The notes: generated by a model not told the origin, from the letters alone. Positions 10,547 to 55,748 are shown, numbered from the stretch's first letter. The stretch is 64,000 bases of DNA from a virus (IMGVR_UViG_3300029908_000019:5585-69584), one strand, 5' to 3'. A program made the numbers and translations.

Positions 10547-13006
10547 ATGAGTTTTTTAGATGACATGCTAAACCCCAAGATTAAAAAAGAAGCTATGGAT
10601 TCAGTTGGGAAAGATGCTAAAGAAACATTTGAACGCAAAGTGATTGCTCATGATTGGATCAAAAGCATTTCCGAATTAGACCCGGTTGCGATTGAAACTG
10701 AGTATCAGGAAAAGCTTGCTGCAGAAGCAAAGCTGCTTGGTAAAGAAGCTGTTCTTCTTCCCTACGATGAATTTGCAGCCATATTGCTTCACGATTATAA
10801 AATCAATCCCGCTGATGTGGGTATAGATAGTCCAGCTGATATGCCTTTGGATGAAACTCCTATGGAATTAGTAGATCGTCTAGCTGAGAAGTATGGGCTG
10901 GATAAGATTGCTAAGAAAGCTGCCTATGAGGAACATGAAACTCCCAAAGAAACAGTTAAGAAAGATTGGGAGAGGGATGTTAAAATCCTCTCAGACTTTG
11001 CTCTCGCTGAAATGCTTGCAGAAGCACGAGGCCATAAGGCTCAGAATACAAGTGAAATGTTTTATGAATTGAAAGAGAAGGCAAAAGCAGAAGTTGCTTC
11101 TTCACGAGAGAAGGCAGAGAAAGCTTTGCTAGACACTATCCCTGAGAATACTCAATTAGATTGGAAGAAAGCATTTGAACGTTTCTCCAAAGAAGCCACT
11201 CCAGAGCAACCTAAAGAGAAAGATCTATATCAACCAATAGTTCCAGAGAAAGAAGTTAAATTTGATGCTCCTTCTGAAAGTAAGATTAAGATGCCTACTA
11301 AAGAAGAAATGATTCCAGCAGGTAATGGCCGTGAAGAGGATGAACGTAAGGAAGTAACGAAAGAGGTTGTTCCAGCTATTAAAGAAGCTTCCCAGAAAGT
11401 AGCAGACAAAGTAACAGATTCCCCTGCAGATGATAAAGGAAATCTCGCTATGCCAGAAGGTAAGAAATCCGCTGGTGATAAGCCAGTTGAATCAGTTGAA
11501 GAGTCTACTCTTCTTTCATCTCCTAAAGAAATTGGGGATAAAGATGATCAAGCTATGGAAGGTAATTCTCCAGAGAAAGGGGATAAGGCTAAAGATATTG
11601 AATCAGTTAATAAAGAAGCTGCTGTAACTCCATCAGGACTTAAGGATAAATTAGTGGAGATGGGTTATTCAGAAGATTCAGCTAATGCAATTGCAAGCCA
11701 ATGGCAATCAGGTAATAGAATTGGTACTGAGCCAAAGACAAAGCAAGATGTCGAGAAAGCTCTTGCAGAACTATCTAAGACAGCAGAAGCATATCGGCCT
11801 AAAACTGGTGAGCCTTGTTCTTGTAAGCCAGGTATGGCACGTGATAATTGTCCTGCATGTGAAGGTACTGGGCAGAAGGTAGACTTTAAAAAAATTCGTG
11901 AAATGCCTCTTGAGGAAAAGAAAGCTGATGGTCCTAGTGCTACTGATAATTGCCCAGTTTGTGGATCTGAGGGTCAAGATCTATTCAATGGAGAAAAAGA
12001 TCATCTAGCATGTCAAGCTTGTGGAATTACTTATGGAGAAGCAGAACCACAGATTAAAGCACAAGCATCTAAAGCAGATGTCCTAAAGATTATGAAGAAA
12101 GCAGAAGTAGAATCCCCTTGGAAAGTTATTAAAGATGAAGCGGGAAATGAAGTAATTGCACGAGTTGGTATTGCAGATAAAAATATTAAAGAGAGCGAAG
12201 AAGAGAATAAAGATTTAGTTAAGTCTGCTTCTCTTAAAACAGTCGCTGATCATACTCATGCACCTGCACCTAAAGATGAAAAGCTTCCTGTCGAAAAAGA
12301 GATTGAGGATGAAGAAAAACCTGAAGAAAAGCCAGAAGCTAAACCCGCAGCAGCTGCTCCTGCTCCTGCTTTAGCTCCTGTTGCTCCCGTTACTCCCGCT
12401 GTTGCCGTTCCAGCTGCCCCTTCAGCATCTGCTTCAACTGGTGGAGATACAACCTCTCCTACGAGAACTAATACAGAAACTGGTGGATCAAGTCCAGGTG
12501 GAGCTTCAACTGGTGGCGTTGGTAGTGGAATTGGTGGAGCTGGTACTGGTGGTGCTGCAACTGGTGGGGCATCAACTGGTGGTGCAGGTACAGTAACAGT
12601 TAACGTTTCTGGTGGTAGTGGAACTAATGAAGATGGTGGCAAATCTGCCCCAGTCACTATTAATATAAGTAACGTTGGTGGAAATACAGACGCAGGTAAT
12701 GTTGCTAGTGGTGATGGACCCGGTAGTTCTGGCACAGGTGGTACAGGGGATGGATCTGGTGGCGGTGGCGGTGGTGCAGCTCCTGATGAACCAAGAAATT
12801 TTAGTACCTCTAGTAAAGATGAGAAGAAAGATGAATCCGATCCCTCTATGTTTTCAAAGGATATTTCTGAAGCAGGGGATACAGATTCTGCTGTAAAACC
12901 AGAAGAAAAACCAGAAGAAAAACCAGAAGAAAAACCAGAAGAAAAAGAATCTATTCTAAAACCACTTAATTCTGCAGCTGCTTGGATAAGAGATTTACTA
13001 CAGTAA
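10547..13006 (+). CDS. Large acidic K-x-A-punctuated protein (putative internal head/scaffold-like protein)
   Basis: 819 aa; KKEA, KKAA, SKEA, NKEAA, SKTA, KKAD and KSAS motifs, zinc ribbons, Gly-rich and KPEE tracts; one segment is similar to the protease-scaffold. Confidence 0.6.
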   Translation: MSFLDDMLNPKIKKEAMDSVGKDAKETFERKVIAHDWIKSISELDPVAIETEYQEKLAAEAKLLGKEAVLLPYDEFAAILLHDYKINPADVGIDSPADMPLDETPMELVDRLAEKYGLDKIAKKAAYEEHETPKETVKKDWERDVKILSDFALAEMLAEARGHKAQNTSEMFYELKEKAKAEVASSREKAEKALLDTIPENTQLDWKKAFERFSKEATPEQPKEKDLYQPIVPEKEVKFDAPSESKIKMPTKEEMIPAGNGREEDERKEVTKEVVPAIKEASQKVADKVTDSPADDKGNLAMPEGKKSAGDKPVESVEESTLLSSPKEIGDKDDQAMEGNSPEKGDKAKDIESVNKEAAVTPSGLKDKLVEMGYSEDSANAIASQWQSGNRIGTEPKTKQDVEKALAELSKTAEAYRPKTGEPCSCKPGMARDNCPACEGTGQKVDFKKIREMPLEEKKADGPSATDNCPVCGSEGQDLFNGEKDHLACQACGITYGEAEPQIKAQASKADVLKIMKKAEVESPWKVIKDEAGNEVIARVGIADKNIKESEEENKDLVKSASLKTVADHTHAPAPKDEKLPVEKEIEDEEKPEEKPEAKPAAAAPAPALAPVAPVTPAVAVPAAPSASASTGGDTTSPTRTNTETGGSSPGGASTGGVGSGIGGAGTGGAATGGASTGGAGTVTVNVSGGSGTNEDGGKSAPVTINISNVGGNTDAGNVASGDGPGSSGTGGTGDGSGGGGGGAAPDEPRNFSTSSKDEKKDESDPSMFSKDISEAGDTDSAVKPEEKPEEKPEEKPEEKESILKPLNSAAAWIRDLLQ
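12895..12945 (+). repeat. 12-nt tandem repeat encoding KPEE x4
   Basis: AAACCAGAAGAA repeated in frame. Confidence 0.85.
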
Positions 13007-13442
13007 TCGATAAGACTGTTGTTAGGAAGAGCATCCCCATGGAGGTTCCTGCAATGGCTTTTAAAGATAAAAATAAAGTTTTAGTTACACCAGGTGATAT
13101 TGTAAAAAAAGGTACTTCTAAGTATGAAGTAAAGTTTATTGAGTCTTACCCCACTGCTACAGTGGTTATTGCTGAGAATATAAAAACACATAAAGTTGAA
13201 ACCTTTCTCTTAAAAGACGTGGAGAAGATATAAATATGCAAGACCGTACTGGATATAAACTCAATATCGGAACGATTGTCAGGGTATTCAATGAACCGAG
13301 TATCCCTGATTCCGATACTTGGGTTTTTCACGATTTTATAGAGATGGGTGTACATACATATTATTTCTTCAGAAACTGTTTTACTAATGAAATTCGAATT
13401 TTTGACCCAAAGAATATAGAAAGAATTTAAAAGGATAATAAC

Positions 13443-15275
13443 ATGCTAGAACGATTTGCAGGGCTTCGCTCACAAATAACTCTTCTAAAAGAGAAGCTAA
13501 AGAAGCATAATCCTACTAAGAATCCAAAGGTCTATAAAGAGATCTTGGATGCTTTGGAAGCTGCTGAGAAACGTTATAGTGCTGAAAAAGCAAAGCGTTT
13601 AGAGAAGCAGAAGGCCAAGGAAGAAGTAGCAAAAGAAGCTGCTCCTAAAGTGGAAGATGGTACTGTCTCCATGCCTAAGAAAGAATTTGTGGATGAACAT
13701 GAGAAGCTTGTGAAAGAGCTTGAGCCCATGGTGGAAGAGCACAAAGAACAAGGTGCTGAGCTTAAAGAAGTTAAAGAATCTGCTGCTCATACTTGTCATT
13801 GGTGTGGGGGAGTAGAATTCCCTACCCAGCAAGCCTATCAAAACCATGTTAAAGAAATGCACCCAGGTAAACAACCAATTCTTCCCCCAGAGAAACCTCC
13901 TGTTAATGAATATAAACCAATGGACTATCAGCACAAGAAAGATATTGTTAAAGATGTAGAACATAAACTTGGCCCAGCTATTATTAGTGAGAAAGAAGAT
14001 AGTGCCGAATTGCATAAAACGGGTCTGCATATTGATGACATAGTAGAACCAGTACGTGGGACAAAAGGTTCAGTAGGTATTGTATTGCGTGAACCCAATG
14101 TTAATGGAGATCCCCTTGTCTATATTAAATGGATTGAGGGACCAAAATTACAGGATGAAATAGGGGGCTACTATCCTTCTGATGTCCGTAGAATTGAAGC
14201 ACCAGTTGAGGAGAAAGTAGCAGAAGGAAATCCTCCACCTCCAGATACAAGTGTTATTCCTGAAACAGATCATTGTGCAAAATGTGCAGATCATCAATCT
14301 AAAGAAGCGGATTTGAAATCTAATTATGATGCATTGCTTAAAGATTTGAAAGATGAGCGAGAAGCACATTACAACCAGGGGAATCATCCATGGGTAGCAA
14401 GGCTTGACCAGAAGATTAAAGAACTTGAAGAAAAGATTCAAGAGAAATTTGGTAATGAGAAAACCTCTTCTGCAGCATGTGATATGTGCAAAGGTCCAGT
14501 TTGTGAACGATGCAAACAATGCCATAAGTGTGTTCAGATAAATGGATCAATGAAGAAAGAGTGTGGGGCTCAGAATGCAGAACAGCTCACAATTTTAGAT
14601 CATTTGCCTCCCAGAGCGAATAAGACTATGGATGAAGGTGGAAAAGATGGAGTGGATGAATTTCAGGACCTTTGGGCAGGACCAGCTGGGACAGAGAAGG
14701 AATCATCTCTAAAAATTAATGTTTTCAACAAACAATGGTCTGCAACTCCTGTATCTAAAGAGGGAAAGCTAGGCTATGATATTAGTGATGAGAGTGGTAA
14801 GAAAGTGCTTCATTTATCACCTCTTAATGGTAAAGAGATGAATGCAGAACATCTCAAATGGGCAGCAGAACGAGAAATCACAAAGGGCTACAAGAAAGCC
14901 ACTCTAACTGAGGATGTCGCTTTCATGAAGAAAGGCTCCAAGGTATGGGTTATTTCAAATGATGGCAAGAAGATCAAATTTGCCAATCTAGAGGCTGGTA
15001 TTAGAGGATATGTAGCAAGCTCCAAGATTCAATTAGAGGCCCTAGAATCGCAAGCAGTACAGTTTAATGGGCAATCCTGTAAGGTTTTAGGACAAACTGC
15101 TACTGAGACTTTAATAGATAGTCCAACAGAAGGCCCAGTGTGGGTTAGTTCTAGTGAATTGTTATCTACTAATCAACCTGTTTCTACTCCAGAAGCTTAT
15201 CCCATTGAAGATCAAGATATTGAGTCTTCTAAGGTATTTTTACTTTCAAAATCTGCAGGAGAGATTGTAAAATGA
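13443..15275 (+). CDS. Large modular K-x-A-punctuated protein
   Basis: 610 aa; C2H2 finger, SH3-like module, KEAA/KESA/KEAD/KKAT junctions. Confidence 0.6.
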   Translation: MLERFAGLRSQITLLKEKLKKHNPTKNPKVYKEILDALEAAEKRYSAEKAKRLEKQKAKEEVAKEAAPKVEDGTVSMPKKEFVDEHEKLVKELEPMVEEHKEQGAELKEVKESAAHTCHWCGGVEFPTQQAYQNHVKEMHPGKQPILPPEKPPVNEYKPMDYQHKKDIVKDVEHKLGPAIISEKEDSAELHKTGLHIDDIVEPVRGTKGSVGIVLREPNVNGDPLVYIKWIEGPKLQDEIGGYYPSDVRRIEAPVEEKVAEGNPPPPDTSVIPETDHCAKCADHQSKEADLKSNYDALLKDLKDEREAHYNQGNHPWVARLDQKIKELEEKIQEKFGNEKTSSAACDMCKGPVCERCKQCHKCVQINGSMKKECGAQNAEQLTILDHLPPRANKTMDEGGKDGVDEFQDLWAGPAGTEKESSLKINVFNKQWSATPVSKEGKLGYDISDESGKKVLHLSPLNGKEMNAEHLKWAAEREITKGYKKATLTEDVAFMKKGSKVWVISNDGKKIKFANLEAGIRGYVASSKIQLEALESQAVQFNGQSCKVLGQTATETLIDSPTEGPVWVSSSELLSTNQPVSTPEAYPIEDQDIESSKVFLLSKSAGEIVK

Positions 15276-16141: not shown

Positions 16142-16150
16142 GGTTATTTT

Positions 16151-18403
16151 ATGAATTTAAAAATTGGTAGTAGAATTTATGATGAACAAACCAAATCTTT
16201 TGGAAAGGTTTCTTCTATTAATAAAGATTCTTTTATTGTAGAATGGGCTGACTGTAAGACAAAGCATCCTGTTACTACTATTTTAAAAGAGGCATCTAAA
16301 GATTGCCCAGATTGCCCTGGAACCTTTGTAGGTAAAGAGAATGAGACTTGTCCTACATGTGGTAGATTTAGTGTTAAAGAAGCTCTTAAGACAGCTCTCC
16401 CTTCAACAATTCCCAATCAACGAGGATACTTAGATAATCCACAGCCTGTTAAAGCTTCCTCTGATAGAACAGTTTATTGTGATGTTTGCGGAGAACCTTT
16501 GACAGATAACCCAGAAGATCATAAGCATTTAGATGTTTATGCTAAGACCAATAAGGATGCTGCTAAACATTGCGCTATTTGCGGTACAGAATATAATACT
16601 TTTCAAGAGTATCAGCAACATCAAAAAGAAAAACATGCACACCCTAAACCTGCAGTTTGCCCAGAATGTGGAAAGCATTGTGAAACAGTATCTGAAGTGG
16701 GAAGACATAGAGAGATAGAACATAAGGTAACAGCCTCTGTTGAAAAGAAAGCCGAGGTAATTGATGCTGAGGAATTAGATTTATATGCTAATAATACTAG
16801 TGAATTATATGGAGATAAACTGGAAATTATAGATACAATAAAGAAGATGCTTAAAAACAATACCTATGATAGACGTACAATGCTTTCTATGTGGGAAGAT
16901 TGGTTTGGCAAAGCTGCTCAAAGATATGCAAAAGAATTTTCGGGAAGTAATATTTCTCCAGAAGCCATCATGCAAGCTGCCAGAGAGATTGAACCGTATG
17001 AATTAGAACGAGTAAAGAGTGGGGAGTATGCTTCAGAAGTGGAACAAGATATTTCAAAACTTCCTGTAATGGATGTTGAACAGGCTAAAGATGACTTATT
17101 AAATCAATTAGCTAAAGAGACTGATCCAGAAAGGAAGAAATCTTTGGAGCAGAAATATAAACGATTGTCAATGGCTAGTTTGAATGTTACAGCACATATT
17201 CGACATGAAGATGGGAAATGGGTAATTTATTCTCATGATTATAAGAAGAAGCTTGGAACATATGATACGAAAGAATCAGCCACGAAAAGACTTCGTGAAA
17301 TTGAGTATTTTAAATCTCATAAAGGTTCAGTAAGACCTTTCAGTAAAAAGACTGCAGCTGAAGTAATGGTTGACCCGTATGCTAGTTTGACAAATCATAT
17401 AACTGAAATGAGACAGAGAATGTCTGATGTACAAACTCGATTAGAAACTACACCACTCCCTAAGCAAGCAGGAGTAGATGAAGAAGATTCTTCAGAATTA
17501 AGTACTGAGGAAGTTTTTTCTGATATCGCTATGGGATTAGATCTCCTCGAAGTAAAACTTAAAGATGAACCAGAATCAGAAGAGCTTCACAATAGCTTAG
17601 AGGAACTTGAGAATTTGTTATGGGAAACTGAGCAAAAGGCTGGTATTACTCCTAAACTTTCTGAAGAGGAACGTGAAGAGCCAGAGCATAAAGATATTGT
17701 AGAAGAAGTAGAAAAAGAATCCTCTGAGAAAGGTGGGAAACCTTCCAGTTTAGTTCATAAAGAAAATAAGGATGAACTTACTAGGGAAGAATTAGAAGAT
17801 GAATCAGTAGAAAAAGAAGCTTCTAGTACATTATGTAAAAATTGTAAGCATACTAAAACTTCTCATTGGGATGATAAAATCTGTTCTGCAAATAGGTGTA
17901 CTTGCAAAAAATATGAAAAAGAAGTAGAAAAAGAAGTAGAAAAAGAAGCAGCATTACCTACAGCAATTACTCCAACATTAAGCTCTCCAGCACCTGCAGC
18001 TAATGCAACTCCTGCAGTTACACCAGATGATAAGAAGACCTCTTGCGCTCTTTGTGGTGGTATGACCTTTAATAGTTTTGATGAATATCAGCAACATATG
18101 GAATATACTCATGCTGGTGATACAATGCCAACTACTCCTTCACAGAAGAAACTTCCCACTACTGCAGCACAACAAGTAACAGATGAAACAATTGAAGAAG
18201 GAACGGGTACACCTCCAGCAGCTCCTGTTGCCACACCTGCACCAGCTATTAAGAATGTTCAACCAACAGATGACGACAATTTGGAAGACCCAACAGTTAA
18301 ACCTTCCAGTCCTCCTGCCCCAGGACAAATTTGGCAATGGGATGCTGCGAATAAAAAATATGTCTCGATGCCCGACCCAGCTAATCCAGGGCACACCATC
18401 TAA
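16151..18403 (+). CDS. Large modular K-x-A-punctuated protein with multiple zinc fingers
   Basis: 750 aa; KEAS, KTAL, KKAE, KTAA, KQAG and KEAA junctions separate small modules such as HIRHEDGKWVIYS...LGTYDTKESA.KRLREIEYFK. Confidence 0.6.
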   Translation: MNLKIGSRIYDEQTKSFGKVSSINKDSFIVEWADCKTKHPVTTILKEASKDCPDCPGTFVGKENETCPTCGRFSVKEALKTALPSTIPNQRGYLDNPQPVKASSDRTVYCDVCGEPLTDNPEDHKHLDVYAKTNKDAAKHCAICGTEYNTFQEYQQHQKEKHAHPKPAVCPECGKHCETVSEVGRHREIEHKVTASVEKKAEVIDAEELDLYANNTSELYGDKLEIIDTIKKMLKNNTYDRRTMLSMWEDWFGKAAQRYAKEFSGSNISPEAIMQAAREIEPYELERVKSGEYASEVEQDISKLPVMDVEQAKDDLLNQLAKETDPERKKSLEQKYKRLSMASLNVTAHIRHEDGKWVIYSHDYKKKLGTYDTKESATKRLREIEYFKSHKGSVRPFSKKTAAEVMVDPYASLTNHITEMRQRMSDVQTRLETTPLPKQAGVDEEDSSELSTEEVFSDIAMGLDLLEVKLKDEPESEELHNSLEELENLLWETEQKAGITPKLSEEEREEPEHKDIVEEVEKESSEKGGKPSSLVHKENKDELTREELEDESVEKEASSTLCKNCKHTKTSHWDDKICSANRCTCKKYEKEVEKEVEKEAALPTAITPTLSSPAPAANATPAVTPDDKKTSCALCGGMTFNSFDEYQQHMEYTHAGDTMPTTPSQKKLPTTAAQQVTDETIEEGTGTPPAAPVATPAPAIKNVQPTDDDNLEDPTVKPSSPPAPGQIWQWDAANKKYVSMPDPANPGHTI

Positions 18404-18565: not shown

Positions 18566-21500
18566 ATGAAATTTTCTAAGAAAGAAATTAAAGCTGCTGA
18601 CTGGGATAGTGCAATTTGCCCTACTTGTGGTGAGCGTGGTACTACCAATCTTTCTCCTGAAGAACAGAAAGCAAAGGGATGGGAATGTGCTGACTGTGCA
18701 AATAAAAGATTTAATGAATTAGAAAATACAGAAGAAATTGAAGAAGTTCCTCCCGTCCGAAATCCCCCCGTTCAAAATCCCTTTGTACAAAATTCTCTTC
18801 CAGAAGATCCTGGATCAAAAGAAATATCTAAATATGATAATGAATATATCTTTTTGGTTCGCCTAGTAAAACTTCTTGGTAAAGAAGCCCCTGAAGCTCT
18901 TCCTGAGATTAAGAAACTTTCCCTTGAACATCCTTTCAAAACTATTACAGATATTGAGTATCTTACTACTCAGATATGGAATCTTGCTGTCACCAAGTAT
19001 CAGATTCCACGAGAATGGCTTATTAAGAGTTTACCTGAGAAGAAAGGTAGTTTGAATAAGAAAGCTAATTCTGATAATTGTTCTGTGTGTGGTTTAGTAA
19101 TGTCACAGCGAGATGTGGATAATGGGGAAGATACTTGTGAAGATTGTTTAAAGAACCATAAAAAAGCAGATCTATGGCCAGCTCAAGAGGAAGCATCTGA
19201 GGGAACTTGCACACAGGCTCCTGGACAGATAGCCTACAATCCTGATCAAGAGAAAGATACCTCAGTAAGTGGCCCTAATCCTCAAGATGTAGCGAATGAA
19301 GATGCTTTATGGGATACAGTAGTCAAGGAATTCTTTACAGCTCACAAGAGATGGTCTGAAGTGGTTAAAACTATTCAACAAGCACATCCTGAAGTTACCA
19401 ATTCAGTAATTTTGTCACTTAAAGATCGAGTGAGAAAATCTCTTGACAATCAGATGGGGATAACTTCTTCTAGAAATAATGGTCACGGTCAAGTTCCCAG
19501 GAGTGAGGCTAAATTTAGAGTGAAACTCTTTGATGGAAGAGGCGTTCAATATTTTCCTAATGAAGAATTAGCCAATAAATATTATGAAATAGCATTAGAA
19601 GAAGATAAAGATCCCTCTAAACCAGAACCATTTACATATAAGAAACAAGCAAAACATCATCTCAATATGGATCAAGTAATTAAGATATTGGATTCTAAAG
19701 AAAATAAAATAGATCATGTAGATTTTACTGATAATACCTTAGAACTATTAGATCACACTATTCTTACCTTTGATGAGGCCACAACGAAGGCTATGGAAAT
19801 CGACAAAGAAAGTGTATTCTCAGGGGCAGAGTTCAGTACAGATGATGTTGGAGTTAATCCATCAATGGATGGTGGTCCATTTTCGAGTCCAGCCGACAGC
19901 GGGGCTACAGACCAAGTGCAGCCCTTTCCAAACACTAATTGGGTCCCCGCTGATGATGAGAATAAAGATGAACAGCCTTATTCAAATATAGCCTCTAATT
20001 TAAATAGACCATTTAGTAAGAAAGCCTATCACACTAATATTCTCTCTTGGGCTATGCATGATCCTCAAATTATTCAACATTTTAAAGATAGAGATTTAGA
20101 TATCAAAGATATTAAGAAGTATCTCCCGTATTTGAATATTAAATATTGGGATAAATCTTCCCCAGTTCCTACTAAAACAGGTGAAACTACTGTGGGACAA
20201 CTTGAATCAGAGAATCCTAGTTACAAGCTTGGCCAATCCATAAGAGCTTATTTTTATCCTCCAACAGGAGAAATTTTTATAAATCCTGCTCTTTCCTTAG
20301 AAGAGGTTCGTGGTACTTTAACGCATGAAATTGAACATGCTCTTCAGGATTCTGAGGGGATTCTTCCACATCATAATGAGTGGGAAAGTACTCCCTATGA
20401 TATCCGAACACATGAATGGGGTGCAGAACTCCCCGTTATTAGAAATTTAAAGAATAAAGGTTATTCTCTTGAGCAAGTTTATCAATATGAGGTTGACAAA
20501 ACCAATCAAGATCATAAAGATTTGGTTCCAATGACAATTGAGGATATGTCAGAAGGATCAAAAAATAAGTATGAACAGCTTTACGAGTTGGCTGATGAAG
20601 TAGAGCCAGCTTCTGTTGTTAGTAATTTGAATAAGAAAGCTAATCCTTCTACTCGTTATTGGATAGCTCCAGATGGAAAAGAATTTCCTGTTTCTGGTAT
20701 TCATCCTGTTTGGATTTCAGATAATGCAGCTATTCTTAAGAAGTATGGTATCGAGGTAAAGGGTAAAGCAACCTATGAGATCCATAAAGAAATGCTTGAT
20801 ACAGGTTGGTCACGAATTTCTAATGAGCGACGAAAGGATAGCAATGCATTTCAGATTGAGGTAGGTAATTTAGGAGCTATCCCCCCTTATGTAGATGATT
20901 TTATTGCCAAAAATTATACTCAGGGAGAAACTGTTTTGATTGGAGATGGAGTAAATAAAGGAGTTTTTGTTCAAGATCCATTCCCCTCAATTCAAAAAGC
21001 GGTTAATAAAGCTTTAAGGAATCCAGTTAATGCTTCTAAAAAGCAAGCTGCCATTAGTGGTCAGATTGTTAGAGATATCTTGGAAGTGATTGAATCTTCA
21101 GGAGGAATTACCTATAATATGCAGCAAGGTAATTTAGCTGGAACTCCAAATTATTCCGTTTCCGTGTATCCAGAAAGAGAAAAAATCGTTGATGGTGTTG
21201 CTGATTTTGATGATATTGAGAACTATATTGAGGCAAATGAAGATTTGTTAAGCCAATCAAGTAATTCCTTTGGCGTATGGAGCAATAATGGTCAGGTGTA
21301 TTATGATGTTGTAGTGACAATTCCTGACAGGGAAGAGGCACTTAAATTAGCACGAGATAACAATCAGTTAGCTATATGGGACTTAAAGAATTCTCAAGAG
21401 ATTCCTACTGGGGTGGTAAGAGCTTTTAGTAAGAATGATATTGTCAAGAAAGCTGAAATCCTAGAAATTAGTCTTCCTTATGTTGAGGGTCGTTCCCTTC

Positions 21501-21955
21501 CTGTTATTGTGAATCCTACTTATGGTGAAGCAATGGGGGCATTAAAGAGAACTGAGCATGGGCTTCGATATTTAGTAGATGATGACGATAATACATTTGT
21601 TTGGCCTTCTTGGAATGCTACACACGATGAAGTAGCTGAAAAATTGCGTGAGGATGGGTACAGGATATCTAATACGGATTCTGCTGGTATGCTAGATTCC
21701 GAAGTAGCTATTCAATATGTTATTGGTTCTTTAAACAAAAAAGCTAAGGAATCATTGCTTCCACAAGCACAGATGGATGAAATCGCTGCTAAATATAGCC
21801 CCATAATGAATATTGCATTAGCAGATTATGCAGATGCTGTCCGTAGAGGCCATGCAAAAGATAGAGCACTTTCCTATGCGGTGCAACAAGTATCCAACCT
21901 GGGTAAAGTTTCTGAAAAAGATCTTATCGAATGTGCCAATACTTATTTGGTTTGA
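18566..21955 (+). CDS. Polyvalent head-cargo-like protein with zincin (HExxH) and other modules
   Basis: 1129 aa; TLTHEIEHALQ metallopeptidase motif; modules delimited by LNKKA/KKQA. Confidence 0.65.
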   Translation: MKFSKKEIKAADWDSAICPTCGERGTTNLSPEEQKAKGWECADCANKRFNELENTEEIEEVPPVRNPPVQNPFVQNSLPEDPGSKEISKYDNEYIFLVRLVKLLGKEAPEALPEIKKLSLEHPFKTITDIEYLTTQIWNLAVTKYQIPREWLIKSLPEKKGSLNKKANSDNCSVCGLVMSQRDVDNGEDTCEDCLKNHKKADLWPAQEEASEGTCTQAPGQIAYNPDQEKDTSVSGPNPQDVANEDALWDTVVKEFFTAHKRWSEVVKTIQQAHPEVTNSVILSLKDRVRKSLDNQMGITSSRNNGHGQVPRSEAKFRVKLFDGRGVQYFPNEELANKYYEIALEEDKDPSKPEPFTYKKQAKHHLNMDQVIKILDSKENKIDHVDFTDNTLELLDHTILTFDEATTKAMEIDKESVFSGAEFSTDDVGVNPSMDGGPFSSPADSGATDQVQPFPNTNWVPADDENKDEQPYSNIASNLNRPFSKKAYHTNILSWAMHDPQIIQHFKDRDLDIKDIKKYLPYLNIKYWDKSSPVPTKTGETTVGQLESENPSYKLGQSIRAYFYPPTGEIFINPALSLEEVRGTLTHEIEHALQDSEGILPHHNEWESTPYDIRTHEWGAELPVIRNLKNKGYSLEQVYQYEVDKTNQDHKDLVPMTIEDMSEGSKNKYEQLYELADEVEPASVVSNLNKKANPSTRYWIAPDGKEFPVSGIHPVWISDNAAILKKYGIEVKGKATYEIHKEMLDTGWSRISNERRKDSNAFQIEVGNLGAIPPYVDDFIAKNYTQGETVLIGDGVNKGVFVQDPFPSIQKAVNKALRNPVNASKKQAAISGQIVRDILEVIESSGGITYNMQQGNLAGTPNYSVSVYPEREKIVDGVADFDDIENYIEANEDLLSQSSNSFGVWSNNGQVYYDVVVTIPDREEALKLARDNNQLAIWDLKNSQEIPTGVVRAFSKNDIVKKAEILEISLPYVEGRSLPVIVNPTYGEAMGALKRTEHGLRYLVDDDDNTFVWPSWNATHDEVAEKLREDGYRISNTDSAGMLDSEVAIQYVIGSLNKKAKESLLPQAQMDEIAAKYSPIMNIALADYADAVRRGHAKDRALSYAVQQVSNLGKVSEKDLIECANTYLV

Positions 21956-21967
21956 TTTATTTACTAG

Positions 21968-22762: not shown

Positions 22763-22780
22763 GAAAAGAAAGGAGTTCTA

Positions 22781-29412: not shown

Positions 29413-30166
29413 GATAGGTATTTATCGTATTCTTTGTTTAGTTAATGACAAAGGATATATTGGGCAATCAACTCATTTAAGAAAGAGAAAAGGAGCCCAT
29501 TTTTTAGCCTTAAAGAAGAATATTCATATTAATGGGCATCTTCAAAGAGCTTTTAATAAATATGGTAAAAATAATTTTAAATTTGAAATTTTAGAGGAAT
29601 GCTCTATTGAAAAATTGGACGAAAGAGAGAAGTATTATATTTCTCTGTATGATACTATCAATGAAGATAAAGGTTATAATATTCGTCCTGAAACAACTAC
29701 AAATTTAGGTTTTCATCATTCTGAAGAAACAAAACAAAAAATGAGAGAGCTTTTAACTGGTAGAATAGTTCCTGAAGAAGAAAAGAAAGCTATGAGTGAG
29801 GGTAGAAAGAAATTGTTTGCTAGTGGGTATAAGCCCCCCTATAAACCAATGGGTCCTATTGTTAAAGCAAAATTTGATGCTTTTAGAGAAGCAAGAAAGA
29901 AACCATTAATTGAGAAAATTTGTACTTGCGGATGTGGTGGAACCTTTTTTGTTAAAGTATATAATTCTCAAAGACAATATGTTAATAAAGAGCATTGGCT
30001 TAGAGTATCTGGTGTAGCAAAAGAAGAACGAATATGCTTATGCGGTTGTGGAATAACTTTTATGGCTAGAATAACTTCTAAGAAAAGATTTTTAAATAAG
30101 GAACATGGGTATAAAAGCACTAAGCATAAAAATAATAATGGGAATATAAGGCATTTAAATGTCTAA
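29399..30166 (+). CDS. GIY-YIG homing endonuclease with NUMOD3-like repeats
   Basis: IGIYRI...GYIGQS, KGYNI, HHSEETKQKMRE. Confidence 0.88.
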   Translation: MVMTKIGIYRILCLVNDKGYIGQSTHLRKRKGAHFLALKKNIHINGHLQRAFNKYGKNNFKFEILEECSIEKLDEREKYYISLYDTINEDKGYNIRPETTTNLGFHHSEETKQKMRELLTGRIVPEEEKKAMSEGRKKLFASGYKPPYKPMGPIVKAKFDAFREARKKPLIEKICTCGCGGTFFVKVYNSQRQYVNKEHWLRVSGVAKEERICLCGCGITFMARITSKKRFLNKEHGYKSTKHKNNNGNIRHLNV

Positions 30167-31844: not shown

Positions 31845-31847
31845 CAT

Positions 31848-48811: not shown

Positions 48812-49448
48812 GGCCATTCATATTTGCCGCTTGAATAAAGAGGCTGCAAGAGAAGATTTATCTTTGCCAGTCTTAGATGGTTTACTTAGAGACGGATATA
48901 CTAATGTCATCTGGAAAGCAGATCGGGCAGAGTGTTTTCGTTGTAGGGATTTAAATAGACAGCAATGGACGTTACAAGATTTTTTGAATTCAACTACTCA
49001 CTCAGCACCTATAGCGTCCCATGGGCATCCAAATGATCTTTGTACAGTTGTTGTATCAGGAGATGGTTTACCAGATATAGAGGTTGATTATAATGGGCAT
49101 ACTGATGAAAGCATTGCTCCTGTAGTTAGGACTCCTAGAGTAGTAAAACCAAAGGTAAAGACATTAGCTCCTGGGCCCCAACCCAAAGTAGTAGAAAAAC
49201 CAGTGGTCCCAGAAACTAAGGTAAAATATATTCCTAAAGATGTGCATAAACAGATGAAAGACCCCTTTGAAAAACAGAAGTTAAGCCCACAGGAGTATGA
49301 GGATTGGTTAGCGGATTTAGAAAAAGAACAAGTTGAAGAATCTATACCAGTTCAACCAACAGATGAGGAAAAAGAAGATTGGTTAAAAGATCTCGAAAGA
49401 GAAACAAGTCTTAGAATTCCTCAGTGGATAAGAGGCGTTATAAAATAA
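48774..49448 (+). CDS. MuF-like head morphogenesis protein
   Basis: W......CFRC..LN...HGHPNDLCT resembles the MuF C..C...HPNCRC motif; lies between portal and protease. Confidence 0.6.
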   Translation: MNMENWIKNLAIKAIHICRLNKEAAREDLSLPVLDGLLRDGYTNVIWKADRAECFRCRDLNRQQWTLQDFLNSTTHSAPIASHGHPNDLCTVVVSGDGLPDIEVDYNGHTDESIAPVVRTPRVVKPKVKTLAPGPQPKVVEKPVVPETKVKYIPKDVHKQMKDPFEKQKLSPQEYEDWLADLEKEQVEESIPVQPTDEEKEDWLKDLERETSLRIPQWIRGVIK

Positions 49449-49449
49449 A

Positions 49450-50616: not shown

Positions 50617-50628
50617 GAGAATTTGTCT

Positions 50629-53600
50629 ATGAGTCTTTATAAAATTGGTTCTATTGTTAATATTACTAAGAGAGCCTATGTAGCTACTGAGGCTTTGTCT
50701 GATCAGAAAGTGGATTTTAAAGTTACGGATATTATTGAACAAAAAAATCCAGAGTTTTTGTATTACACAGCAAAAGCCATTAGCAGTCTTGAGCCTAATT
50801 TTAATCTAAATGGAAATTTCGACGGATTCCCCAAATCTGAACTTAAGAAAGCTTATAAGACTTTCGAAGGTAGGGGCATCTTTTTAAATCATGATAGTGA
50901 CTCTCCAATTAAATCTGTGGGAAGAATTTTATCTGCCGAATATATGGAAGATGAAAAAACAGGTGCTGCATGGATAGAAATTTTAGGACGCATTGACCGC
51001 GTTTTACATCCCGAAATTGCAAGAAAAATCGAGGTTGGGGATTACACTGACACTTCGATGGGTTGCTCAGTAGATGAGTCGGTTTGCTCTGTGTGTGCAA
51101 AAATTTTGCACTCAGATGCTGATGAACGTTGTCAGCACCTTGGGGTTTCATTGGGAAAACGATTTGCAGCAGAAGTTGATATGCCTGAATATGGAATTGT
51201 TAAAGGTCAAGAGATTGTTGCAGGAAGCATAAATCGTGGAATTGTCTTTAATGAGGACAGTTTAGTTAATGTGCCAGCTGATGCTACTGCAAAAATTCGT
51301 ACAATTTTGAATAACATGAAACATCGTTTTACTAAAACTGCAAGTCTTACTTCTGATGAGAAATTAGATTTTGTCAAACAATTCGAAAATTTATTATCTA
51401 AAGTAGATTCAGATATGGCCATAAAATTAAAAGCAGAGTTCTGTGGCATTTGTCCACCAGCACCTATTAAGGAGTCCTCTATGTCCGAAACGAATTTGCC
51501 TAATGAAGAAACAAAGAAGATTCTAAATAAAATTTCAGCTTACGAAATGGGGTTACTTGAATCCTATGTCGCTCATAAGACCAAGAAAGCTAATGAGATT
51601 GTTAATAAAGAAGTGGTTGCAGATGCCACTAAGAAAGAAGAAACATTCCTTTCTAAAATTGTTGCTAAAGTGAAAGATAGTTTTGCTGCTCAGCTATTGG
51701 AGAAGAAAATTGAAACAGTAGCTAAAGAAGAAATTGAGAAGGAAGCTATGAAATGCCCTAAATGCAAACGTCCTATCAAAGAGAATACTGATGGTGATGA
51801 GAAGTATTGTCAGGGGCATTCTGATTCACGTTTTGCTTCTCTTTCAGCCAAATTCAATGAAGATAAAAATAATGTATTAGCCTCCACATGGGAAGTGTAT
51901 GAAGGTAATAAGCTTGTTCTAGATGCTTCTCTTAAAGATATTTGGGATAAAAAATTTGAAACACTATCCTTTGCTGATCAGAAATGGGCAACCAGCGAAG
52001 CATATGGCTTAGAAGCTATTGCTCGCTATCAGAAAGAAGGGCTTGAAAAATTAGCTGAAGATTGGGATGTAAGCCATAAATTAAGCAAGACAGCTAAAGG
52101 TCCAGAACTAGGTCCTGATGGCTCCTATGCAAAACCTTCTACTGGTACAGATAATAAGAAACACAATTATCCTACGACACCTAAATTCACAGATTCTAAA
52201 CCAGGAGCAAATTCAAAAGGTCCAGCAGCCCCTAAGCCAGCAGCAGTTAAGACTGAGACAAAACTTGATATGCCTGGTCAGGAGAAGGGTCAGACAGGCC
52301 CAGCAGCTCCTAAAGCCAAAGAAGTAAAAACAGATTATGCGGAACCAAAGGCAGAAGCAGAAGGTAAGGAAGTTAAAACCACTCCTAAGAATCCAGAAGA
52401 GAAAAAAATGGGGAAATCAGAGAAAGAAGTAAAAACAGATTATAAAACTGTTGGCGAAGAGGCTAAAAAAGCAGAGGAAGAGGGTAAAGAGAAGAAAGAA
52501 GATAAAAAGGCTTCTCTTATTAGTTGGGCTTCCCTTACACCTAAAGCACAAAATTTTATTAAAACAGCAGCAAAGAGTTATATTGCCAGTGGAATGAAAA
52601 ATGCTGAAGCCGTGGCGAAAGCTCACGGTGAATTTGCAGCCCAGGAGAAAGATATGAAAAAGCAAGCAGCTGATAAGCCCGTAGAGAGTGTTGAAGGATC
52701 TACTCTTCCAGAAGGTACAAAAGAGATGGGAGATAAACCTGAAGAAGCCGTAAAAGGCACAACTCTTCCAGGCGGTGCAGCTCCAGCTTCTGCTCCTGAG
52801 ATAAGTGCTCAAGGTGACACGGAACATAAAACGACAGATTTAACTAAGAAACCCGAAGAAGCTGTAAAGGGTACAACCACTCCAGCAGATCATATTTCTA
52901 ATACTGAGAAGAGCGAAGAATCAGTAGATGGAACTACTTTCCCAGCAGATAAAAAAGAAGTTGGCGATAAAGCCGACTCCGCGGTAAAACAAGCTGCTAA
53001 ATCTGAAAACTCTGCTCCAATTGAAGCAGTTCAAGATAAACCAGCACTTTCTAACAAAACCGTAGGTGATAAAGCAGCGCAATCTTCCCAAGGTGATACA
53101 GAGCCAAAGGGATCTGCTCCTGAGAATTCTAGTAATGAGTCTGTAAAGAAATCTGCTGCAACTGAGATGCCTATGCCAGAAGATAAACCAGCTATTGAAG
53201 AAGATGTTAAGGTTGATGAAAAACCAGCACTTCTCCCAGAGGCCCCAAAGCCAGAAGCAGCACCAGCAGCTGAAGTTTCAGCATTTGATAAAACAGAGAA
53301 ACTAGATATTGGCACCGGATATTCCGCTCATAAGGATCATGAATCCAAGGAAATTATCATTGAGAAAGATGGCAAGGAAGTTAAACGTCTTCCAGATGGA
53401 TTTGGTGCAGAAGTAGCCGTTGTTCTTCCTCTATTGAAAGCCGTTCTTGGTCTTCCCGCAGAAGAGGCAAAACCAGAAGTTCCTGGAATGGCTGCTCCAA
53501 TGGAAGAGAAGAAAGAGGAAGTTCCAGCAGTTGAGGAACATCCAGCACTTCAAGAAGCACATGAAGATGAACTAGGAATTAAAGAGTCAGCTCTAAAAGT

Positions 53601-54048
53601 CAGAGAAACTGCACTTCTAGCTAAAGAAGCAACCCTTAAGGCTAAAGAAGAAACTTTAAAGAAAGAAGCTGCAGCAAAGAAATTTGCAGAAGTGTTGAAA
53701 GCTCGTTCTGAACGCTGCCATAAAATCGTAGCTGCCATGGTTGAAAAAAATACGCTTGAAATGGACAAAGAAGTTTATGCTTCTGAACTTCAGCAAGGCA
53801 CTTATCTTCTAGATGCACAGAAGAAAGCTTTTGAACATGCCATTACAGCAAAGCATAAAGAATTCTTAGCAATGACGGATGAGGCATTACTCGCTGCAGA
53901 AAAAGTTATTGCTGATCTCAAACCATCTGTTACAAAGAAAGCCAGTAATATTTTCGTTTCTCCTTCATATGGAGAGCAGATGTCCGAAGATGAAGAGATT
54001 GCAAAGATTTTCCGAACAATGGGAAATTCTAAACAGCATCCTCAATAA
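50629..54048 (+). CDS. Prohead protease fused to a scaffold domain
   Basis: NGNFDGFPKSEL...IFLNH...VGRI...TSMGC protease domain, then a long low-complexity/coiled-coil region; directly upstream of capsid genes; ATG50629 follows AGGAG. Confidence 0.8.
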   Translation: MSLYKIGSIVNITKRAYVATEALSDQKVDFKVTDIIEQKNPEFLYYTAKAISSLEPNFNLNGNFDGFPKSELKKAYKTFEGRGIFLNHDSDSPIKSVGRILSAEYMEDEKTGAAWIEILGRIDRVLHPEIARKIEVGDYTDTSMGCSVDESVCSVCAKILHSDADERCQHLGVSLGKRFAAEVDMPEYGIVKGQEIVAGSINRGIVFNEDSLVNVPADATAKIRTILNNMKHRFTKTASLTSDEKLDFVKQFENLLSKVDSDMAIKLKAEFCGICPPAPIKESSMSETNLPNEETKKILNKISAYEMGLLESYVAHKTKKANEIVNKEVVADATKKEETFLSKIVAKVKDSFAAQLLEKKIETVAKEEIEKEAMKCPKCKRPIKENTDGDEKYCQGHSDSRFASLSAKFNEDKNNVLASTWEVYEGNKLVLDASLKDIWDKKFETLSFADQKWATSEAYGLEAIARYQKEGLEKLAEDWDVSHKLSKTAKGPELGPDGSYAKPSTGTDNKKHNYPTTPKFTDSKPGANSKGPAAPKPAAVKTETKLDMPGQEKGQTGPAAPKAKEVKTDYAEPKAEAEGKEVKTTPKNPEEKKMGKSEKEVKTDYKTVGEEAKKAEEEGKEKKEDKKASLISWASLTPKAQNFIKTAAKSYIASGMKNAEAVAKAHGEFAAQEKDMKKQAADKPVESVEGSTLPEGTKEMGDKPEEAVKGTTLPGGAAPASAPEISAQGDTEHKTTDLTKKPEEAVKGTTTPADHISNTEKSEESVDGTTFPADKKEVGDKADSAVKQAAKSENSAPIEAVQDKPALSNKTVGDKAAQSSQGDTEPKGSAPENSSNESVKKSAATEMPMPEDKPAIEEDVKVDEKPALLPEAPKPEAAPAAEVSAFDKTEKLDIGTGYSAHKDHESKEIIIEKDGKEVKRLPDGFGAEVAVVLPLLKAVLGLPAEEAKPEVPGMAAPMEEKKEEVPAVEEHPALQEAHEDELGIKESALKVRETALLAKEATLKAKEETLKKEAAAKKFAEVLKARSERCHKIVAAMVEKNTLEMDKEVYASELQQGTYLLDAQKKAFEHAITAKHKEFLAMTDEALLAAEKVIADLKPSVTKKASNIFVSPSYGEQMSEDEEIAKIFRTMGNSKQHPQ

Positions 54049-54250: not shown

Positions 54251-54724
54251 ATGGCTATTCGACAAATTAAAGAAGTTAACCGATCTATCGGTTATCCAGT
54301 AGCATCTGGGAATATTGTAGGTGGAAACCTACTTGAGATCAATGCATCGGCTCAGGTTCTTCCATGGCTTCATACACGAACCGCAGGGCAACCTCTAGGT
54401 CTCGCAATTGAATCCAACGTATTTTTCCCACTTCAGCCAGCAAATGGTGAAGTAGCAGGGCAGGGTTTCGACTATACCAACTTCAATCGTGGCGGTCTCG
54501 AATCCGTGTATCTAGACGGTGGAGATTTCGTCCTTTATAATGATGGTCGTGGTTATCCCTATGATGCAACCGCAACGTATGCAGTCAACATGCCAGTTTA
54601 TGCCTCTGCTGCAACCGATGGTCTTATCACATCTGATGCAACAAGCACAGTTATTGTTGGTTATGTTGTTGGCTTCGATGTTGCCGTAGCACCAACCCAG
54701 CTCGAAATCAAATCAATTATCTAA
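54251..54724 (+). CDS. Capsid decoration/cement protein
   Basis: 157-aa beta-rich protein between scaffold and MCP; strong RBS; highly-expressed codon usage. Confidence 0.65.
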   Translation: MAIRQIKEVNRSIGYPVASGNIVGGNLLEINASAQVLPWLHTRTAGQPLGLAIESNVFFPLQPANGEVAGQGFDYTNFNRGGLESVYLDGGDFVLYNDGRGYPYDATATYAVNMPVYASAATDGLITSDATSTVIVGYVVGFDVAVAPTQLEIKSII

Positions 54725-54794
54725 TTAATTAGGTATAGATCTAGTTGTAAACAAGATTGGCCGCAAGGTTGACTTGTATTTAAAGGAGAACAAT

Positions 54795-55748
54795 ATGAAC
54801 GAAATTAACAAAGAAGCCTCCTTGGAAGTACTCTCAAGCCAAGAAGTTGAAGCAAAGCTTTCTCGCTTGATGCAGTCTCCCGGTGGGCTACAGAAAATTG
54901 CACAACAGATGCTCTCGCCCCTAAAGCGCGAACTTCTATACGAGGGTCGTATTCGTCAGCTATTCCAGACATACAAACTAGCACTCGGTGAGGAAGCAGT
55001 ATTCGATGCAGATGTTGATGTCCCAGCAGCAAGCATCTCAGTCGAAGGTCTTCCCGCACAGCTTGAAGTTCTAGCAGATCGTATTCGCGTTGAAACGTCC
55101 CCTATTTCAACTCGTCCAATGATCCGTTGGAATGAATCCAACTTCCGCAAGTACGATGTTCTTAATCGTACCCAGGAACGTGCAAAAGCTTCAATCATGC
55201 TACAGGAAGATACTCGTGGATATAATCTGATCAATTTCGCCTCTGGCTTAACGAATCAGACACCCGCAGCATCTCTTGCTGGTACGACTGCTGCAACAAA
55301 CAACCCCTCAGTAATCCCCAACGGCGCAGCTGGACTCTCAATGTATACTTTGGCCACAGCCATTGTAACTCTAAGCTCTAAGCTTCTAGTTGCAAGCAAA
55401 CTATACATTAACCCACTTACCCGTCGTGATCTATTGCTCTTCAATAATGCTTCTAGTGGTAATGGTGGCCTTGGTATTTTCGCCCCCAACTTCCAGGACA
55501 CAGCATTGAAAGCTGGTCGCGTAGGTGGAATCATGGGTGTTGATGTTCTAGAATCAGTCGTTGTTCCAACCACAGCCTGTTTCGTTCTAGCTCCCGCTGA
55601 TTATCTTGGCGTTCTAGCTATTCGTACAGACCTCTCAGTTGAAACTATGAAAGATGTAAATAAGATGGCCGATGTTTTCGCTATATGGGAAGATGTTGGA
55701 TTTTTGTGTCGCTATGCAAAGGGCATCGTGAAGGTAACACTTCCATAA
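54795..55748 (+). CDS. Major capsid protein (HK97-like)
   Basis: Synteny and size (~317 aa); VGGIMGVDVLESVVVP P-domain motif; ATG54795 follows AAGGAG; followed by a hairpin. Confidence 0.85.
   Translation: MNEINKEASLEVLSSQEVEAKLSRLMQSPGGLQKIAQQMLSPLKRELLYEGRIRQLFQTYKLALGEEAVFDADVDVPAASISVEGLPAQLEVLADRIRVETSPISTRPMIRWNESNFRKYDVLNRTQERAKASIMLQEDTRGYNLINFASGLTNQTPAASLAGTTAATNNPSVIPNGAAGLSMYTLATAIVTLSSKLLVASKLYINPLTRRDLLLFNNASSGNGGLGIFAPNFQDTALKAGRVGGIMGVDVLESVVVPTTACFVLAPADYLGVLAIRTDLSVETMKDVNKMADVFAIWEDVGFLCRYAKGIVKVTLP

Follow-up and report, generated by a model that had tools for sequence, protein, structure and literature searches.

Introduction

Polyvalent proteins are an established class of phage proteins that have been predicted to be packaged in the virion and injected, and that have been likened to the polyproteins of RNA viruses (Iyer, Burroughs, Anand, de Souza, Aravind 2017; PMC5512222). 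The text of that article proposes that their domains are released by embedded peptidases, mainly the zincin, and mentions assemblin-like domains as rare C-terminal fusions; no inter-domain cleavage motif was found in that text. Prohead proteases that trim many internal head proteins are described for T4, phiKZ, 201phi2-1 and SPN3US, where the published accounts give cleavage motifs ending in Glu (PMC9026906, PMC10052503), namely S/A-X-E in phiKZ (PMC9026906) and A-X-E in SPN3US (PMC10052503), and N-terminal capsid-targeting peptides in T4 (PMC9026906, PMC10052503). For the herpesvirus assemblins, the pseudorabies virus sites are given as YLQA-T and VQA-S, with the maturation cut removing 37 residues (PMC4498786). 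Here we describe a 64,000-nucleotide stretch of an uncultured phage (the window; bases 5585-69584 of the 69,584-base IMG/VR virus record IMGVR_UViG_3300029908_000019) in which eight large cargo genes encode strings of small modules separated by a junction motif containing Lys and Ala. The motif is restricted to cargo and head proteins, it lies at module borders, and it recurs at corresponding sites across the family of a prohead protease with a predicted assemblin fold.

The window is a piece of a ~190-kb tailed phage genome, the completeness of the record being estimated at 36%. Its large open reading frames (ORFs) all lie on the + strand, and its GC fraction is ~0.36. We collected 56 related IMG/VR loci with 50–96% identity in the major capsid protein (MCP), including complete genomes with terminal repeats of 192 kb (G001), 193 kb (G002) and 210 kb (G003). 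The cargo genes (10547-38313) stand directly upstream of the genes for terminase (39077-42450), portal, protease and MCP, all on the + strand. As in polyvalent proteins, many unrelated conflict-type domains share one chain beside a portal-terminase head module: the cargo genes have the late, head-gene context of such a system, several unrelated effector or enzymatic domains are found per polypeptide, and these include the signature ART-PolyVal family as well as nucleotidyltransferase (NTase), 2H, ParB-like and zincin domains. The window departs from the release model in the text of PMC5512222 in that the zincin is dispensable across relatives and the junction motif ties the cargo to a separate prohead protease.

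We compared this arrangement with T4 gp21 and its internal proteins and Alt, and with phiKZ gp175 and SPN3US gp245 and their inner-body and ejection proteins. The elements in common are a protease of the same fold, proteins expected inside the head, and a short motif that often follows a short N-terminal targeting peptide; several of the cargo proteins here have a site 10–25 residues from the N-terminus. The T4, phiKZ and SPN3US enzymes, as far as the published accounts describe them, use Glu and mostly remove propeptides from single proteins, whereas here the sites contain Lys and Ala and lie between modules of one chain. Herpesviruses, for which we know of no polyvalent cargo, provide a UL26-type layout that shares with the window the fold, an N-terminal protease fused to the scaffold, a site after the protease domain and a second site ~30–45 residues from the C-terminus, with Ala then Ser/Thr at both. 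The reported herpesvirus sequences are Y-L-Q-A and V-Q-A, whereas in the phage motif the second position upstream of Ala is Lys and the fourth is hydrophobic.

Among cultured phages, the proteases of the cluster C mycobacteriophages are the nearest to that of the window (Myrna gp97, 30.9% identity; Bxz1 gp95, 32.3%). Phage G and Bxz1 carry K-x-A after their protease domains (LEKVAS and NNKTAG) and in neighbouring head proteins, the sites lying in gp19 and gp14 of phage G and in gp95, gp94 and gp97 of Bxz1, and the phage G portal has it near its N-terminus (MAKQAAS), like the portal of the window. The cargo of phage G and cluster C is not homologous, with 0 of 24 matching phage records covering at least 80% of the 1642-residue cargo protein. 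No published cleavage sites for phage G or cluster C were found in the literature searched.

A junction motif enriched in cargo and head proteins

The sequence-only reading of this stretch described eight large ORFs as modules joined by K-x-A and quoted a series of junction strings. All eight ORFs are present at the sizes it gave (819, 610, 750, 1129, 1642, 561, 485 and 1274 amino acids (aa); 7,270 aa or ~21.8 kb in total), as are all of the strings. Summed over the eight, bare K-x-A occurs 87 times against 54.5 expected from per-protein shuffles (per-protein z 0.3–2.9). We enumerated all gapped patterns with three or four fixed residues on the 7,270 aa, with no prior choice of pattern. Cysteine (zinc-ribbon) patterns ranked above L.K.A in this enumeration, and the top non-cysteine patterns were L.K.A (19 vs 3.72 expected; p 1.7e-8 with ~48,000 patterns), K.A.L (17 vs 3.72), SLN..A (6 vs 0.12; p 4.6e-9 with ~1.6 million patterns), K.ASL (7 vs 0.27), LNK.A and S.NK.A. 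Since longer patterns head the list, the real element is longer than K-x-A; it spans ~7–9 residues of the form [A/S]-S-L-(N)-K-x-A-[S/A/N/D], with the variants FSKK(..)A and, in relatives, ASL[KRH][IV]xA. Most cargo junctions read K-K-A, K-Q-A or K-T-A, and identical patterns lead the lists for the cargo ORFs of four relatives (G001, G002, G004 and G005).

The enrichment relative to other proteins that the sequence-only reading led one to expect was borne out: it is confined to cargo and head proteins. Class counts, expressed as observed over expected from composition-keeping shuffles, were 19/3.8 for L.K.A, 17/4.0 for K.A.L, 8/0.5 for SL.?K.A, 7/0.3 for K.ASL and 4/0.1 for FSKK in window cargo, and 7/1.8, 6/1.6, 1/0.3, 4/0.1 and 0/0.1, respectively, in window head proteins. 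The other ORFs of the window (10,203 aa) gave 6/3.0, 1/3.2, 3/0.4, 0/0.3 and 0/0.2 for the same five patterns. The cargo of G001 likewise shows an excess (L.K.A 15/3.9, K.A.L 16/3.5, K.AS 11/3.7, K.ASL 3/0.2, FSKK 6/0.1), and the other G001 proteins (51,843 aa) are at expectation (23/20.5, 15/19.9, 15/13.3, 2/1.1 and 0/0.7 in the same order).

Circularity was avoided by training a weight matrix solely on 79 post-protease sites in the protease-scaffold proteins of other phages. In window cargo this matrix found 22 sites vs 4.0 expected at a score of at least 8, 11 vs 1.9 at a score of at least 10 and 7 vs 0.3 at a score of at least 12. The corresponding values were 7/2.3, 4/0.7 and 3/0.2 for window head proteins and 3/1.9, 1/0.7 and 0/0.2 for other window proteins, and G001 cargo gave 20/3.9 at a score of at least 8 and 13/1.3 at the next threshold. 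A two-component mixture model of the flanks of the 87 K.A sites was overfitted and did not separate true sites from background.

Codon use at 45 sites is as in the background, with AAA:AAG at 29:16 vs 577:305 and GCT:GCA:GCC at 26:13:6 vs 356:277:97, and the Ser and Leu codons at sites vary, indicating that selection acts on the protein; a signal for recombination at the DNA level was rejected on this ground. The Lys is replaceable, since 12 of 55 related MCP loci have KLNV[ET]AS, compared with INKEA[SA] in 13 and VTKTAS in 4.

Module borders coincide with the motif

The expectation that sites would follow domain boundaries held for paralogous modules, for a repeated domain termed module X, for the ends of local alignments, for a family alignment and for linkers in an AlphaFold model. 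Much of this evidence comes from cargo polyproteins D (1129 aa; 18566..21955, + strand) and E (1642 aa; 24484..29412, + strand), the latter delineated by Pfam matches, sites, paralogues and stand-alone homologues of single modules. D contains a zincin (DUF6782), module X at residues 693-828 and module Y at residues 964-1057, and its modules are separated at K165-A167, K199-A201, K360-A362, K485-A487, K690-A692, K826-A828, K961-A963 and K1058-A1060. Three paralogous module pairs start or stop at sites: D residues 672-825 match E 860-1015, D 699-794 matches E 1403-1497, and D 961-1051 matches E 428-518 in an alignment that begins exactly at the motif Lys in both proteins.

Module X is ~135 aa long with a W-I/V-x-P-x-G core and has 23 copies among the cargo proteins of the window and of four relatives, five genomes in all; the copies in the window, located with a hidden Markov model, lie at 20642-21049, 27118-27528 and 28666-29028 (+ strand). 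All 20 of the 23 copies in which the N-terminal part was matched have an Ala-ending junction a few residues before the W-I/V-x-P core, either K/R/H-x-A or a longer form (ASL..xA or ..ITA), and the C-terminal tails of the module run into ASL, SLxK or FSKK. In D, the junction K690-K-A692 (SNLNKKA|NPSTRYWIAP; 20633..20641, + strand) directly precedes module X and K826-Q-A828 (NASKKQA|AISG; 21041..21049, + strand) ends it, and in E a tandem junction, K871-T-A-S-L-K-Q-A878 (TKTASLKQA|A; 27094..27117, + strand), stands before a further copy.

When window cargo was compared with the cargo of relatives, 73 of 184 internal ends of high-scoring segment pairs (HSPs) fell within 8 aa of K.A, random sites giving 31.3 +/- 8.2 with a maximum of 72 in 1000, and after clustering 31 of 88 ends did so vs 15.9 +/- 3.1 for random sites (maximum 26). 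For D, an alignment of 31 homologues shows A692, K826 and A828 to be nearly invariant, and conservation at the junctions is 0.7–0.9 for K and 0.8–1.0 for A with 0.1–0.5 for their neighbours. At K690 the number of occupied rows in this alignment rises from 11 to 29, and immediately ahead of K1058 it rises from 2 to 30, two examples of the jumps seen at junctions. Other phages have stand-alone genes that match E residues 538-655 and 1211-1394, intervals flanked by the sites A545/A653 and A1215/A1394; modules that move between polyproteins and occur elsewhere as separate genes fit units that function separately.

An AlphaFold2 model of the 1129-aa protein, computed with the 31-row alignment, consists of confident domains split by low-confidence segments (mean predicted local distance difference test score, pLDDT, 65.7). 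Of its 11 K.A sites, 9 are in segments with pLDDT<50, which make up 385 of 1129 residues; shuffling these segments at constant composition gave 2.2 +/- 1.4, with 1 of 2000 shuffles reaching 9. The confident regions hold 2 K.A sites vs 3.8 expected, and both (K106 and K927) are predicted to be intrahelical and do not have the extended context. Three short dips in pLDDT (679-691, 820-828 and 1054-1062) coincide with three junctions, the first two being the pLDDT<50 segments that contain the junctions on either side of module X. A Foldseek search with the whole 1129-residue model returned nothing at E<=0.001.

The prohead protease and its scaffold

The prohead protease domain (residues 1-240; 50623..51342, + strand), delineated by PHROG match, alignment, AlphaFold, Foldseek and VIA-align, ends at a release-like site, K238-T-A240|S, in agreement with the sequence-only reading, which placed the motif after the protease domain as TKTAS (residues 237-241 of ORF 50623-54048). 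The ORF matches phrog_18299, "head maturation protease" (1.7e-11). The domain is fused to a scaffold-like region of ~900 aa (51343..54048, + strand), which has internal sites; 34 aa from its C-terminal end is a maturation-like site, VTKKA1107|S (VTKKA|SNIF), after which comes a conserved tail (IF..MG). The MCP gene begins ~700 bases downstream. The protease also has an N-terminal site of its own, which is ITKRA here and either LKTAA or TKTAA in the relatives.

Searched by sequence, the protease domain had no match in the PDB. The AlphaFold model of the protease has a mean pLDDT of 85.8; its core scores at least 93, and confidence drops at 234-238, immediately ahead of TKTAS. Its best Foldseek match is the protease of Kaposi's sarcoma-associated herpesvirus (2pbk_A, E 5.3e-4), with further herpesvirus proteases and T4 gp21 ranking next. 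VIA-align placed it with T4 gp21 (5jbl_A) at Z 10.9 (root-mean-square deviation 2.6 Å over 127 residues), pseudorabies pUL26N (4v08_A) at Z 10.5 and the herpes simplex virus 2 protease (1at3_A) at Z 9.3, with unrelated folds (MCE-domain) from Z 6.6. The protease is thus predicted to have the assemblin/T4 gp21 fold. Four residues (N63, N65, D67 and H90) do not vary in an alignment of 38 protease sequences, and four more (S145, C155, C158 and C170) reach at least 90% conservation; H90 and S145 are the putative catalytic His and Ser.

Residues 1-259 match 2,132 cluster representatives (50% identity clusters) at E<=0.001; the majority have an N-terminal protease and a length of 700-1500 aa. The 27 residues that immediately follow the protease domain include a K.A in 89 of 138 representatives, compared with 28% of control segments from the same proteins. 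Its Lys lies 15-16 residues past the anchor in 47 of the 89, and the residue two before the Lys is L/M/I in 69. The residue following the Ala is S in 29, A in 11 and V in 10, while K (17), T (16), V (14), I (12) and A (11) are the most frequent between Lys and Ala, with E in 3; Glu therefore does not stand directly before the presumed cut here as in the T4 L/I-X-E or the phiKZ/SPN3US S/A-X-E motifs. Of 113 long representatives, 49 have their last K.A ending 25-46 residues from the C-terminus, in a context like ..R-[MI]-K-K-[TV]-A-[SA].., and a conserved tail (W..LPWS or IF..MG) comes next. Retention of K-x-A-S both after the protease domain and near the scaffold C-terminus makes a specificity unlike the Glu motifs of T4 and phiKZ likely. 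The proposal of the sequence-only reading that the prohead protease cuts at K-x-A is strengthened by this link; as a rule it needs revision, the element being longer, its Lys replaceable and its Ala the steadier residue.

Motif-bearing head proteins

The same reading placed the motif near the N-termini of the MCP, the portal and a MuF protein, and all three strings are where it put them; the MuF label is unconfirmed. The MCP (54774..55748, + strand; phrog_2522, 1e-33) has INKEA|S at residues 11-16 of the listed ORF, the site with the top matrix score (16.9). Its nearest cultured relative is gp27 of Bacillus phage G (29.5% identity), which matches from query residue 20. Translation of the MCP probably begins at the ATG at 54795, the start seen in relatives, which would make the N-terminal extension ~8 residues long, and a cut after A15 of the listed ORF would remove this extension, which has no counterpart in the phage G MCP. 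The small head-module protein (48774..49448, + strand) contains CRLNKEA|A at residues 18-25, within which LNKEAA occupies 20-25; it has no Pfam or PHROG family and is MuF-like by eye only.

Exon 1 of the portal gene (43103..43300, + strand) encodes EKTASLAKEA|T, with K32-A34 and K38-A40. The gene is interrupted by a group I intron at 43266-43464 (+ strand; Rfam RF00028, 60.8 bits, gathering score 50), the rest of the portal being open from 43471. The portal ORF 43576-46290 also carries a LAGLIDADG-type intein (Pfam LAGLIDADG_3, residues 273-326).

Proposed processing and alternative explanations

We propose, with a probability of roughly 0.7, that the cargo proteins are polyproteins processed at their junctions by the prohead protease within the prohead and then delivered as separate effectors, a proposal built on sequence statistics, comparative positions and predicted structures. 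The eight late genes would encode polyvalent proteins, strings of unrelated effector domains with the repeated module X, that are co-assembled into the prohead. The serine protease of predicted assemblin fold, fused to the scaffold, would cut the junctions there, most likely after Ala by analogy with the herpesvirus assemblins. It would also trim the N-termini of the MCP, portal and small head protein, free itself from the scaffold and clip the scaffold C-terminal tail. The outcome would be several dozen separate small proteins in the head, delivered with the DNA. A cut after Ala is favored because the layout mirrors the herpesvirus order of protease, release site, scaffold, maturation site and capsid-binding tail, because the conserved residues lie N-terminal to the Ala, because the module cores begin a few residues past it, and because Ala stays where Lys is lost in the MCP loci.

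Several points weigh against this proposal. In this uncultured lineage cleavage is a prediction, and the presumed packaging of the cargo follows from gene position and from the published prediction for polyvalent proteins. Bare K-x-A is just ~1.6 times its composition expectation, and the other proteins of G001 show a slight matrix excess (20 vs 13.8 at a score of at least 8, then 10/5.7). The matrix finds 0 matches in the 610-aa ORF at 13443 and 2 in the 485-aa ORF at 31938, so that two of the eight ORFs are site-poor and the eight are unequal in site richness. Lys is lost in some lineages (KLNVEAS, ASLHVTA), which leaves the recognition rule not fully defined, and 111 of the 184 HSP ends lie away from any site. 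The AlphaFold model of D is middling at its mean pLDDT of 65.7, and one of its low-pLDDT stretches (952-1019) covers part of a real module with ~3 alignment rows. Finally, the distribution of a trypsin-like protease is compatible with a role at the junctions: each of the four relatives that encode it also has the motif.

The alternative that survives best, though we judge it unlikely, is that the junctions are conserved linker or docking elements, binding scaffold, portal or DNA, or hinges, and that the proteins stay intact. A docking peptide would need the flexible linkers in which the model places the motif, and some packaged polyvalent-type proteins do stay whole, as the text of PMC5512222 notes for the N4 virion RNA polymerase. 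What disfavors this explanation is the occurrence of the motif at classical trimming places, namely in the MCP N-terminal extension, where the protease domain ends and ~34 aa short of the scaffold C-terminus, places which parallel the herpesvirus release and maturation sites, together with the shifting of modules between polyproteins and their existence as stand-alone genes in other phages.

Less probable again is cutting of the junctions by another enzyme, whether the trypsin-like protease, a protease of the host or a peptidase embedded in the cargo, for example the zincin. The trypsin-like serine protease (47166-47816, + strand; Pfam Trypsin_2, 2.7e-21) is encoded within the head/cargo region and has orthologues in G001, G002, G004 and G005, each of them a carrier of the motif, and the conserved Lys would suit a trypsin-type S1 pocket. 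By eye, however, the window protein and its four orthologues begin with a basic-hydrophobic stretch ending in a lipobox-like Cys or an AxA-like site, and such N-termini point to export from the cytoplasm, leaving this enzyme as a minor candidate only. The M50-like gene at 22019 has matches in G004 only and, its distribution differing from that of the motif, was rejected as the junction protease. ClpP, which degrades processively, is no candidate for site-specific cuts. Embedded metallopeptidases were proposed to process polyvalent proteins (Iyer et al. 2017; PMC5512222), but the zincin module (D residues 488-692) had no tblastn match in the whole genome of G001 or in the fetched parts of G002-G005, and since it is not conserved with the motif the embedded zincin was rejected as well. 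The motif stands directly after the prohead protease domain itself in 89 of 138 representatives, and in phage G gp19 too (LEKVAS, LLKIAS), and Ala persists in some lineages in which Lys is replaced. A list of phage G proteases given in 2025 in PMC12484599 (ClpP, ClpX, the head maturation protease, a CAAX-family membrane protease and a spore protease) includes no trypsin-like enzyme.

That the motif is a by-product of composition, of duplication of modules with their linkers or of a DNA recombination signal is very improbable and largely refuted by the class counts, the codons and the matrix: the proteins are indeed Lys- and Ala-rich, module X is duplicated many times and modules are shuffled, but composition-keeping shuffles do not yield the observed counts, the motif flanks unrelated modules and unrelated head proteins, the K, A, S and L codons vary as in the background, and a matrix derived from the proteases of other phages recovers the cargo sites.

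A broader form of the processing proposal, which we put forward tentatively and rate at slightly less than an even chance, is that phage protease-scaffold proteins of a very large clade (2,132 clusters) cut after Ala in hydrophobic-x-K-x-A|S, at release and maturation sites, in a herpesvirus-like manner, and that at least the present lineage extends this rule to ~22 kb of polyprotein genes, whose products would be loaded into the prohead and split into several dozen anti-host effectors, with modules shuffled freely at the junctions. Four features appear to be new: a defined inter-module junction motif; the tie between it and a separate protease of predicted assemblin fold; a Lys/Ala rule in place of Glu; and the conservation of herpesvirus-like release and maturation sites over a very large phage protease family. 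In the literature searched, no Lys/Ala motif for a phage prohead protease and no processing of polyvalent proteins by one were found, only the Glu motifs of T4, phiKZ and SPN3US and the account of Iyer et al. 2017.

Provided that the junctions are cut, several dozen effector modules are marked out by the motif, among them many of no known family, such as module X. The processing of polyvalent proteins would then fall to the capsid maturation protease and not to embedded peptidases, tying cargo release to head maturation. Phage and herpesvirus capsid proteases, already known to share a fold, would also resemble each other in function if the cut is after Ala, with release and maturation sites in the herpesvirus order. 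A true rule would provide a simple way to parse and mine anti-defence and effector domains in thousands of uncultured large phages, and foreign proteins could be loaded into phage heads and freed there by way of such a junction, in a manner that recalls the T4 capsid-targeting sequence. As a natural comparison without these polyproteins, G003, the most distant of the complete relatives, might be useful: its whole record has no match to the 1129-aa cargo protein, though the protease, portal and MCP are there.

Cargo genes and their modules

PHROGs assigned no function to the cargo proteins; Pfam scans were run on the full-length proteins and also on fragments cut at the junctions. Cargo polyprotein A (819 aa; 10547..13006, + strand) begins with a short N-terminal peptide ending in KIKKEA, a site kept in relatives as ISKEA, LNKEA or KIEIEA, and has more junction-like sites downstream. 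Cargo protein B (610 aa; 13443..15275, + strand) has few good sites and represents the 5' part of a gene that in relatives includes C in the same ORF, a 1178-aa ORF of G001 spanning B residues 1-596 and then modules of C. Cargo polyprotein C (750 aa; 16151..18403, + strand) contains zinc-ribbon modules and sites that include TILKEA|S and RPFSKKTA|A. In D, the DUF6782 zincin scores 30.0 bits (cut-off 27).

Cargo polyprotein E starts with a Pol-beta NTase, followed by ART-PolyVal, module Y, a HAD-like phosphatase, a module of no assigned kind and module X; after this first module X come a small module, an X-like module, a 2H phosphoesterase, another module X and a small C-terminal domain. Junctions lie at A430, A533, A653, A873/A878, A1089, A1215, A1394 and A1518. 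Pfam matches are NTP_transf_2 (24.8 bits, cut-off 21), ART-PolyVal (35.0, cut-off 31.2), 2_5_RNA_ligase2 (36.2, cut-off 27) and a weak Acb1 (21.3, cut-off 27), with a sub-threshold HAD/NT5C-like match. Cargo polyprotein F (561 aa; 30159..31844, + strand) has ParB_N-like (23.5 bits, under the cut-off of 26.3) and X-like modules and is continuous with E in relatives. Cargo protein G (485 aa; 31938..33395, + strand) has a weaker motif content, and cargo polyprotein H (1274 aa; 34489..38313, + strand) has sites that include KKSSLNKEA|S, 21 aa before the C-terminus.

Module X is predicted with pLDDT >90 and has no Pfam family. An ESM Atlas search with it gave scores of 0.86-0.88 only, none reaching 0.9, which is below the usual level for recognition and provides leads only. 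It could be a carrier or packaging domain. Modules are shuffled between genes, as in a 1611-aa ORF of G004 that combines pieces of the 1642-, 561- and 1129-aa proteins of the window.

Endonuclease-like ORFs lie between cargo genes at 15272-16141 and 29399-30166 (+ strand), the second GIY-YIG-like by eye only, and a third similar ORF is at 33418-34479. The flanking cargo genes (610 with 750 aa and 1642 with 561 aa) are single ORFs in G001 and G004, so that the polyprotein genes of the window seem to have been split by mobile endonuclease genes. Also between cargo genes, the region 22019-23470 (+ strand) encodes an M50/site-2-protease-like membrane protein and a deoxyribose-phosphate-aldolase-like protein, both labelled by eye.

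Neighbouring genes

The terminase large subunit (39077-42450, + strand) is encoded in two overlapping ORFs with Hint/intein regions (Pfam Intein_splicing, PT-HINT). The second ORF (41182-) opens with a C-terminal intein splicing block, and the intein therefore appears to be interrupted at the ORF break. Near the terminase N-terminus (ORF 39077-41191, residues 16-24) is a junction-like string, VASLSKAAT, with NLSKAA or TLNKAA in the same place in relatives; this is odd, as the terminase is not expected inside proheads. Two tRNA genes (57511-57584 and 57601-57672, + strand; Rfam RF00005, 57.1 and 55.1 bits) lie between the head and tail genes.

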